Source: Escherichia coli (GTDB taxonomy: Bacteria > Pseudomonadota > Gammaproteobacteria > Enterobacterales > Enterobacteriaceae). From it: a stretch of 64,000 nt of DNA. The notes under the pieces are model-generated. The model had not been told where the DNA came from. It was given only the letters and a program-made list of their open reading frames with translations, and made no database searches. The stretch lies in NCBI RefSeq assembly GCF_003334305.1, contig NZ_QOWS01000015.1; one strand, given 5' to 3'. Made by a program: the position numbers and the translations under genes. Below are positions 28,021-28,861 of this stretch, piece by piece. Position 1 is the stretch's first letter; each line of letters starts with the position of its first letter.

Positions 28021-28139
28021 CACACTAATCCGTATCGATTTCGTTATAGAATCCGATGATTATTTGATTGTGAGAAAAAGGACGCTTTTTATATGTGATT
28101 AAAAGCGTCCTGACCCATTTATGCTGATATAAATTAAGC

Positions 28140-28439
28140 TCAGACCAGTGCTTTTAGTTCTTCCTGCATATATGTTGAAAAGTATTCAGGATTTTTAATT
28201 ACAGTGCGTTCACCAGACTCCATTTTTTTTGCCCATCCAACCATTTTTTCCGTGAACCCAGGGTTCCAGCCTTCCTGGTCAGCTCGCGCCGTAATATCAG
28301 CGGCACTCGCGGGTACTCCCAGTTCTTTTAAATATTTAAAGATTCCCTTCGCTGTGCTTTCATTCATCGAACTTGGTGTTGGCGCTGATACATCCATGGC
28401 ACCAATGAAATCCAGGGCTTTATCTATTACAGCAGGCAT
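28140..28439 (-). CDS. yoaC: DUF1889 protein YoaC
   Basis: ORF 28140..28499 trimmed to MPAVIDKALD start (99 aa); start uncertain. Confidence 0.7.
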   Translation of the reverse strand: MPAVIDKALDFIGAMDVSAPTPSSMNESTAKGIFKYLKELGVPASAADITARADQEGWNPGFTEKMVGWAKKMESGERTVIKNPEYFSTYMQEELKALV

Positions 28440-28861
28440 ATTCTTATCCTTAAAATTAACCATGTTATCGATAAGACTATATATGACCTTAATTTGCATC
28501 TAATATCAAAGGGATTATAACGATATGGCACGAGTTAACCTGTTGACATTCAGGTGTTTTAAAGGTAGCAGCTCATGGTGTGTTATCCAGTAAGATGGAG
28601 AAATTTAACGGTCAGTCCTCACGCTATAACCAGATTATTCAGCTAAGAAAGAAAACCAGAGTTGCTAGTCAGAGGGCGAACACAACGGCATGGTTATGGT
28701 TATTTATATAGTTAGTTTTATAGATAAAATTGAAATTATAAAAATAAATAATGAATTAGCAGGAGCATCAACAGGTAATATCTTAATCTCTGGTCGATTT
28801 ATGTAAAACCGACCAGTATTATCGATAAATTATCGTCTGACTTATTTTGCTTCGATAAAGC

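Follow-up and report, generated by a model that had tools for sequence, protein, structure and literature searches.

The acquired AT-rich regions proU and bgl are silenced by H-NS, a high-affinity motif of which is tCGATAAATT (Lang et al. 2007, PMC2094087). The gap between yoaB and yoaC analysed here resembles these regions in its low G+C content compared with the flanks, in being restricted to a lineage, and in combining an exact site with interspersed weaker matches. Unlike proU and bgl, the yoaC islet is tiny, with 841 nt and a single gene, and the papers searched contain no report of H-NS occupancy or of derepression in an hns mutant at yoaC. Similar comparisons can be made with promoters of the YhaJ regulon, such as those of yqjF, ybiJ, yhaK and yhhW (Palevsky et al. 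2016, PMC5031710; Connolly et al. 2019, PMC6765310). The full box of YhaJ, a LysR-type regulator, is a TCA-N7-TGA dyad inside T-N11-A (PMC5031710). yoaC is listed among the known YhaJ targets (fourth row of the EHEC table, PMC6765310), reproducible ChIP-seq peaks are present at yoaC in both EHEC and UPEC CFT073 (two replicates each; PMC6765310, Tables S3 and S4), and the gap contains a T-N11-A sequence. It differs from the regulon promoters in having no full TCA-N7-TGA box, and from yqjF and yhaJ, where the listed distances place the peak close to the promoter, in that the yoaC ATG and the peak centre are ~340-360 nt apart; the 2016 motif study (PMC5031710) did not include yoaC in its promoter analysis. 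In a ChIP-exo study, another LysR-type regulator, YeiE, occupied a position upstream of RNA polymerase at yoaC and proved to be an activator of the gene (PMC6237786), the polymerase itself being bound upstream of yoaC in the same type of experiment, described in the text without coordinates (PMC6237786). Finally, the gap shares with intrinsic (Rho-independent) terminators between same-strand genes a stable, covarying stem-loop just past the yoaB stop codon, after which several other Escherichia species have a short run rich in U; unlike in such terminators, the E. coli stem is followed by AGAGAUUAAG, with no U-run.

The window, i.e. the whole 64,000-nt stretch of DNA analysed, has the gene order pabB-yoaH-yoaC-yoaB-yoaA of the E. 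coli chromosome, and a 1.3-kb query around the gap found a match in all 5,426 complete E. coli genomes, with 96.6-100% identity among the matches listed. With yoaB and yoaC both on the minus strand, the gap follows yoaB and precedes yoaC in the direction of transcription, and its counterpart in K-12 MG1655 is 1893712-1894132 (421 nt). The original prediction of an AT-rich gap of about 420 bp without a convincing ORF holds: the G+C content is 33.2% against 49.6% in the window, only 0.9% of the 422-nt windows are as AT-rich (the top 1%), and the ORFs internal to the gap reach at most 43 aa, none of them conserved. Its further description as lacking any assigned feature is right for genome annotation, since RefSeq places nothing between yoaC and yoaB either in the identical strain or in K-12 MG1655, and wrong for the literature, where the gap is already partly documented through the YhaJ ChIP-seq peaks and the YeiE ChIP-exo binding. 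Three more 422-nt stretches of the window, around 53720, 14400 and 17100 (68-70% A+T), equal or exceed the gap in AT-richness.

We hold with good confidence that the gap is the non-coding 5' part of an AT-rich foreign insert, composed of a distal hairpin with an H-NS motif, an unconstrained spacer, and the conserved promoter, leader and ribosome-binding site of yoaC (table 1). The insertion, the conservation pattern, the hairpin, the motifs and the 99-aa start come from the present analysis and the occupancy by YhaJ and YeiE and the activation by YeiE from published papers; H-NS binding, the choice of promoter and the role of the hairpin are what we infer from these data. Transcripts of yoaB would end at or near the hairpin, ~46 nt after the gene, or be protected by it. 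The imported AT-rich DNA would serve as an H-NS substrate, its middle ~210 nt fitting an H-NS-type silencing platform in composition and motif density, and YhaJ and YeiE, bound to the upstream part, would stimulate yoaC transcription at an activator-dependent promoter. Efficient translation from the 99-aa start would then be due to the conserved ribosome-binding region within the proximal ~130 nt. The gap is an ordinary intergenic control region in a small acquired islet, with nothing pointing to a new kind of element, and its significance is small beyond a tidy annotation in which the yoaC start is set at 99 aa. Membership in the 841-nt imported islet explains the length and AT-richness of the gap, which is now tied to the published YhaJ and YeiE binding data. 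The locus offers a small-scale natural case of a foreign insert, with a single gene and between two convergent core genes, that has been wired into host regulation, and its control region should be useful to anyone studying yoaC.

Table 1. Features of the yoaH-yoaC-yoaB region, in coordinates of the 64,000-nt window.
Feature	Coordinates	Strand	Evidence and remarks
Escherichia-specific low-G+C insertion carrying yoaC	28021..28861		841 nt, 37% G+C; between the stops of convergent yoaH and yoaB
yoaC intrinsic terminator, canonical	28079..28111	-	11-bp G+C-rich stem followed by UUUUUCUC; fold z = -3.4
yoaC, 99 aa, DUF1889	28140..28439	-	ORF list, RefSeq annotation, Pfam
Gap	28440..28861		422 nt, 33% (33.2%) G+C, non-coding; no Rfam match above chance
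GGTTAATTTTAAGGATAAGAAT, 22 nt before the yoaC ATG	28440..28461	-	near-invariant in Escherichia, Citrobacter, Lelliottia and Buttiauxella
Conserved proximal block: putative yoaC core promoter and 5' leader	28440..28571	-	strain and species conservation, alignment
Putative -10 hexamer, perfect TATAAT	28514..28519	-	invariant in 6/7 Escherichia sequences; GATAAT in L005
Fast-evolving AT-rich spacer (middle), without detectable constraint	28576..28785		strain variation, species identity, deletion, IS1
TTATAGATAAAATTGA, LysR-type T-N11-A motif	28718..28733	+	assigned to the YhaJ peak by the authors of PMC6765310; exact match in the window
Distal promoter-like TTTACA-16-TAAGAT toward yoaC	28780..28807	-	consensus scan; rival start point
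Projected YhaJ ChIP-seq peak centres (CFT073 2045463 and 2045445)	28781..28799		mapped via the CFT073 annotation (yoaC ATG 2045805)
Stem-loop, 11-bp stem, 5-nt loop	28790..28816	-	inverted repeat, 46 nt past the yoaB stop codon
Exact H-NS motif tCGATAAATT, within TTATCGATAAATTATCG	28822..28831	+	motif search; adjoins the distal hairpin
yoaB, RidA family, 114 aa	28862..29206	-	upstream neighbour of yoaC, same strand

The stop codons of yoaB and yoaH are 5 nt apart in Salmonella (L022) and 0 nt apart in Klebsiella (L023). Since they abut in both genera, all of 28021-28861 represents an insertion of the Escherichia lineage. Judged from this comparison, the insertion is foreign DNA that entered between the abutting stops and brought yoaC with it; its G+C content of 37% contrasts with ~52-56% in the flanking genes. 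Outside Escherichia (Buttiauxella, Citrobacter, Lelliottia), yoaC is not adjacent to yoaB, yoaH, yoaA or pabB, and in one Citrobacter locus it lies behind a 628-aa ORF with an intervening space of just 135 nt. A scan for inverted repeats revealed no convincing target duplication or terminal inverted repeats bordering the insert, and a distant DNA search of plasmid and phage collections no signs of a mobile element, the matches being only chromosomes filed as plasmids and coding similarity to Klebsiella DUF1889 genes. By comparison with other Escherichia species, the insertion has demonstrably decayed on the yoaH side.

In these other species, a gene for a 150-aa pentapeptide-repeat protein lies between yoaC and yoaH (L004, 3390-3842, minus strand). 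Within the corresponding interval of the window (28021-28139), E. coli has about 20 nt of its 5' end left (ATCCGTATCGATTTCG, 28030-28045), with the ATG mutated, and this remnant is followed by a clean deletion of ~430 nt.

The original prediction treated the start of yoaC as uncertain between forms of 99 and 119 aa, and the size of the gap as varying with it, and it proposed an N-terminal comparison of YoaC orthologues. This comparison, for which 19 loci with YoaC relatives were recovered from other species, leaves the long form unsupported, the extensions being broken in several species. Four other Escherichia species (L003, L004, L005, L007) have lost the ATG of the 119-aa form, whose extension is out of frame after a 1-nt deletion in E. 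albertii and runs into stop codons in Buttiauxella. In a 107-aa form (MVNFKDKN...), four loci have ACG, GCG or AAG instead of the start codon, L009 has an interrupting TAG and L006 a frameshift, and the changes in the eight codons that this form adds are mainly non-synonymous or stops, i.e. not a coding pattern. As neither longer form has a conserved open frame and start codon in the orthologous loci, and as residue 21 of the 119-aa form, which is Met1 of the 99-aa form, is exactly where the Pfam DUF1889 model starts, the comparative data support the 99-aa start, with which the gap stays at 422 nt. The solved Salmonella DUF1889 homologue (PDB 2ES9, 2JN8) was built from the 107-residue form, with the N-terminus MVNFKDKS. 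Because the comparative data suggest that these eight residues (28440-28463, minus strand) correspond to untranslated leader, the construct probably carries a non-native N-terminal extension. As for function, one screen has linked yoaC to boric-acid tolerance (PMC11502571).

Conservation along the gap was assessed from an alignment of seven Escherichia sequences and ten diverse E. coli strains. Among the latter, the share of variable sites is 2.9% in the proximal part (28440-28575), 13.8% in the middle (28576-28785) and 6.6% in the distal part (28786-28861), compared with 7.3% in yoaC and 4.9% in yoaB. The proximal part is the least variable of all segments at the locus within E. coli, and its 87-90% identity to four other Escherichia species is like that of coding DNA. 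The middle is just 48-66% identical between Escherichia species, contains many indels, and is mostly deleted in L003.

Such behaviour of the middle would also fit a reading in which it is inert debris of a larger, decayed islet without any part in regulation, and in which nothing but the proximal ~130 nt and the hairpin would be of consequence. This is possible, if on the whole unlikely. The middle looks neutral and tolerates both deletion and an IS1, and the islet has decayed on its other side, where the 150-aa pentapeptide-repeat gene has dwindled to the ~20 nt kept in E. coli; against this, no residual protein similarity is apparent in comparisons with a few loci only, and published YhaJ peaks together with their assigned motif fall in or beside the middle. 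When six-frame pieces of the gap were compared with the yoaC neighbourhoods of other genera, no protein or DNA similarity extended past the ~26 nt nearest the ATG. The debris reading overlaps our preferred one, a regulatory 5' region with an unconstrained spacer, and does not exclude it.

Two strains are worth describing separately. In Escherichia sp. MOD1-EC7003 (L003; 2730-3000), yoaC is 97% identical to that of the window, yet the gap measures 271 nt and the proximal block is only 79% identical, a pattern that suggests recombination or rapid change upstream of yoaC. In strain 2012EL-2448 (L032), an IS1A is inserted at 28714-28723 with a target duplication of ~10 nt (AGTTTTATAG), which pushes the YhaJ motif 768 nt farther from yoaC; the rest of the 1.3-kb query is identical to the window.

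In the proximal block, the hexamers 16-18 nt upstream of the TATAAT are AGGTTA, CAGGTT and ACAGGT, and the consensus promoter scan did not output this site. Because the TATAAT is not accompanied by a recognisable -35 hexamer, the proximal promoter is probably activator-dependent. A putative transcription start near G28507 would give a leader of ~68 nt, which as a sequence folds no better than its shuffles (z = -0.5). No mapped 5' or 3' ends of yoaC or yoaB were found in the published supplementary data searched, so the promoter assignment is based on sequence and conservation alone.

A strongly conserved element adjoins the coding sequence. A Shine-Dalgarno sequence, AAGGA, occurs at 28447-28451 (minus strand), 7 nt from the yoaC ATG and inside GGTTAATTTTAAGGATAAGAAT. 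This stretch is the only part of the gap common to the non-Escherichia loci, and it is near-invariant despite the YoaC proteins of the four genera being just 67-76% identical. Its TTAATTTTAAGGA part may resemble the translational enhancer of phage T7 gene 10 (TTAACTTTAAGAAGGAG). A leader pairing UCUUAUC/GAUAAGA was considered and rejected, as by eye it is not kept in Citrobacter or Buttiauxella, and a CRP-like or Fur-like reading of the conserved TGTCAACAGGTTAACT and the GATAA/TTATC palindromes was dropped, again by eye, for misfitting spacing. The 10-nt palindrome TTATCGATAA occurs twice, at 28465-28474 in the yoaC leader and at 28819-28828 beside the distal hairpin, with additional CGATAA/TTATCG half-sites at 28830 and 28852; a rough estimate from base composition puts the number of such hexamers expected in the gap at ~0.3.

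At the other end of the gap, the RNA of 28770-28861 (minus strand) folds with -22.9 kcal/mol (z = -4.2 compared with shuffles). The stem-loop within it contains G+C and is kept by compensatory change: in the seven Escherichia sequences 92% of the cells of the stem are paired, with two compensatory pairs, as against 16-48% paired in slid controls. In E. coli the stem runs into AGAGAUUAAGAU instead of a U-run, and the stem-loop is absent from the output of the terminator scan. With moderate confidence, we regard the hairpin as a putative yoaB terminator or as one that protects the 3' end of the transcript.

Next to the hairpin lies the only exact match to the H-NS motif in the 64-kb window, invariant in the ten diverse E. 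coli strains. Sites resembling the motif are denser in the gap than anywhere else in the window, with 17 at a threshold of at least 7/10 positions and 7 at at least 8/10, numbers reached by 0.02% and 0.04% of the 422-nt windows, respectively. The region also has the marks of foreign DNA, namely low G+C (33% in the gap and 37% in the islet vs 49.6%) and absence from this place in Salmonella and Klebsiella. From its motif content, occupancy of the gap by H-NS may reasonably be supposed.

The projected YhaJ peak centres lie near the same end of the gap. Matches to TTATAGATAAAATTGA with up to two mismatches are expected by chance at 0.06, and our projection of the peak centres reproduces the published distance of 66 nt between motif and centre; the published 'distance to gene' relied on the old 119-aa start of yoaC. 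The centres are projected far from the proximal promoter. Between 28400 and 28900, no sequence matches the full YhaJ box at 6/6 positions, the best being 5/6 at 28550 and 28573, and the candidate site published at 28718-28733 conforms to T-N11-A but contains just one half of the dyad. At position 28774, the window strain has an extra G that is private to it in comparison with nine other E. coli strains. These nine read TCAACAGTAATATCT there, the first nine bases of which equal the YhaJ site listed for ybiJ (TCAACAGTACAATTGA), within 30 nt of the projected peak centres.

The palindrome of the hairpin, TTATCGATAAATTATCG with the exact H-NS motif, and the YhaJ peak centre are all found only ~30-80 nt beyond the yoaB stop, at a distance of ~340-400 nt upstream of the ATG of yoaC. 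One may speculate that this distal end acts as a remote switch, at which H-NS would nucleate, spread over the spacer and silence yoaC, with YhaJ and/or YeiE either relieving the silencing from afar, and not by touching the promoter as contact activators, or firing a distal promoter with a leader of ~330 nt; we regard this as a doubtful proposition.

The position of transcription initiation is where the evidence diverges, as conservation speaks for the proximal TATAAT and the YhaJ peak, by its location, for the distal site at 28807-28780. With a YhaJ-dependent promoter near 28780-28807 as the main origin of yoaC transcripts, the gap would consist mostly of a regulatory leader RNA of ~330 nt. 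The TTTACA-16-TAAGAT found there coincides with the projected peak centres (28781-28799), and the palindromes of TTATCGATAAATTATCG would be ~45-60 nt upstream of the implied start. LysR-type regulators usually sit at about this distance, ~45-60 nt, upstream of the start. However, the consensus scan yields fewer promoter-like sites in the gap than in shuffles (2 vs 3.6, i.e. not above chance), and the distal hexamers are poorly conserved outside E. coli in the Escherichia alignment. In addition, the would-be leader (28576-28785) looks neutral, has been lost from L003 and is split by an IS1 in one strain, and the whole upstream space of Citrobacter is only 135 nt. We therefore consider a mainly distal start improbable and continue to favour the proximal promoter as part of the conserved block.

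A search with Rfam covariance models at a permissive E-value returned only chance-level matches, the one inside the gap being to a nematode snoRNA model, which scored 17 bits where its gathering score is 65 (E = 3.7). The ORFs of the gap sit in indel-rich sequence and their frames are not conserved; that of 38 aa (28690-28806, plus strand) is open only through the private 1-nt insertion at 28774. It is hence very hard to believe that the gap hides an unannotated gene, either for a small protein (the 43-aa ORF at 28580-28711 or the 38-aa ORF, both on the plus strand) or for a small RNA: short ORFs do exist, a promoter-like site is found at 28703-28730 (plus strand), and UAUUAU comes after the hairpin when this is read in the plus orientation, but there is no Rfam match, K-12 RefSeq has nothing here, and the middle, where the ORFs fall, is the most variable segment, deletable and interrupted by IS1, with one of the frames private, all of which argues against a conserved protein or RNA gene there.

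One ORF had been described as running across the gap antisense to yoaC (28204..28503, plus strand). It does exist (99 aa) and is antisense to yoaC, but it covers just the first 64 nt of the gap. It is most simply understood as a shadow frame and not a gene, yoaC being without in-frame TTA, CTA and TCA codons. The same antisense frame is open in Citrobacter also (90 aa; L012, 2973-3245, minus strand).
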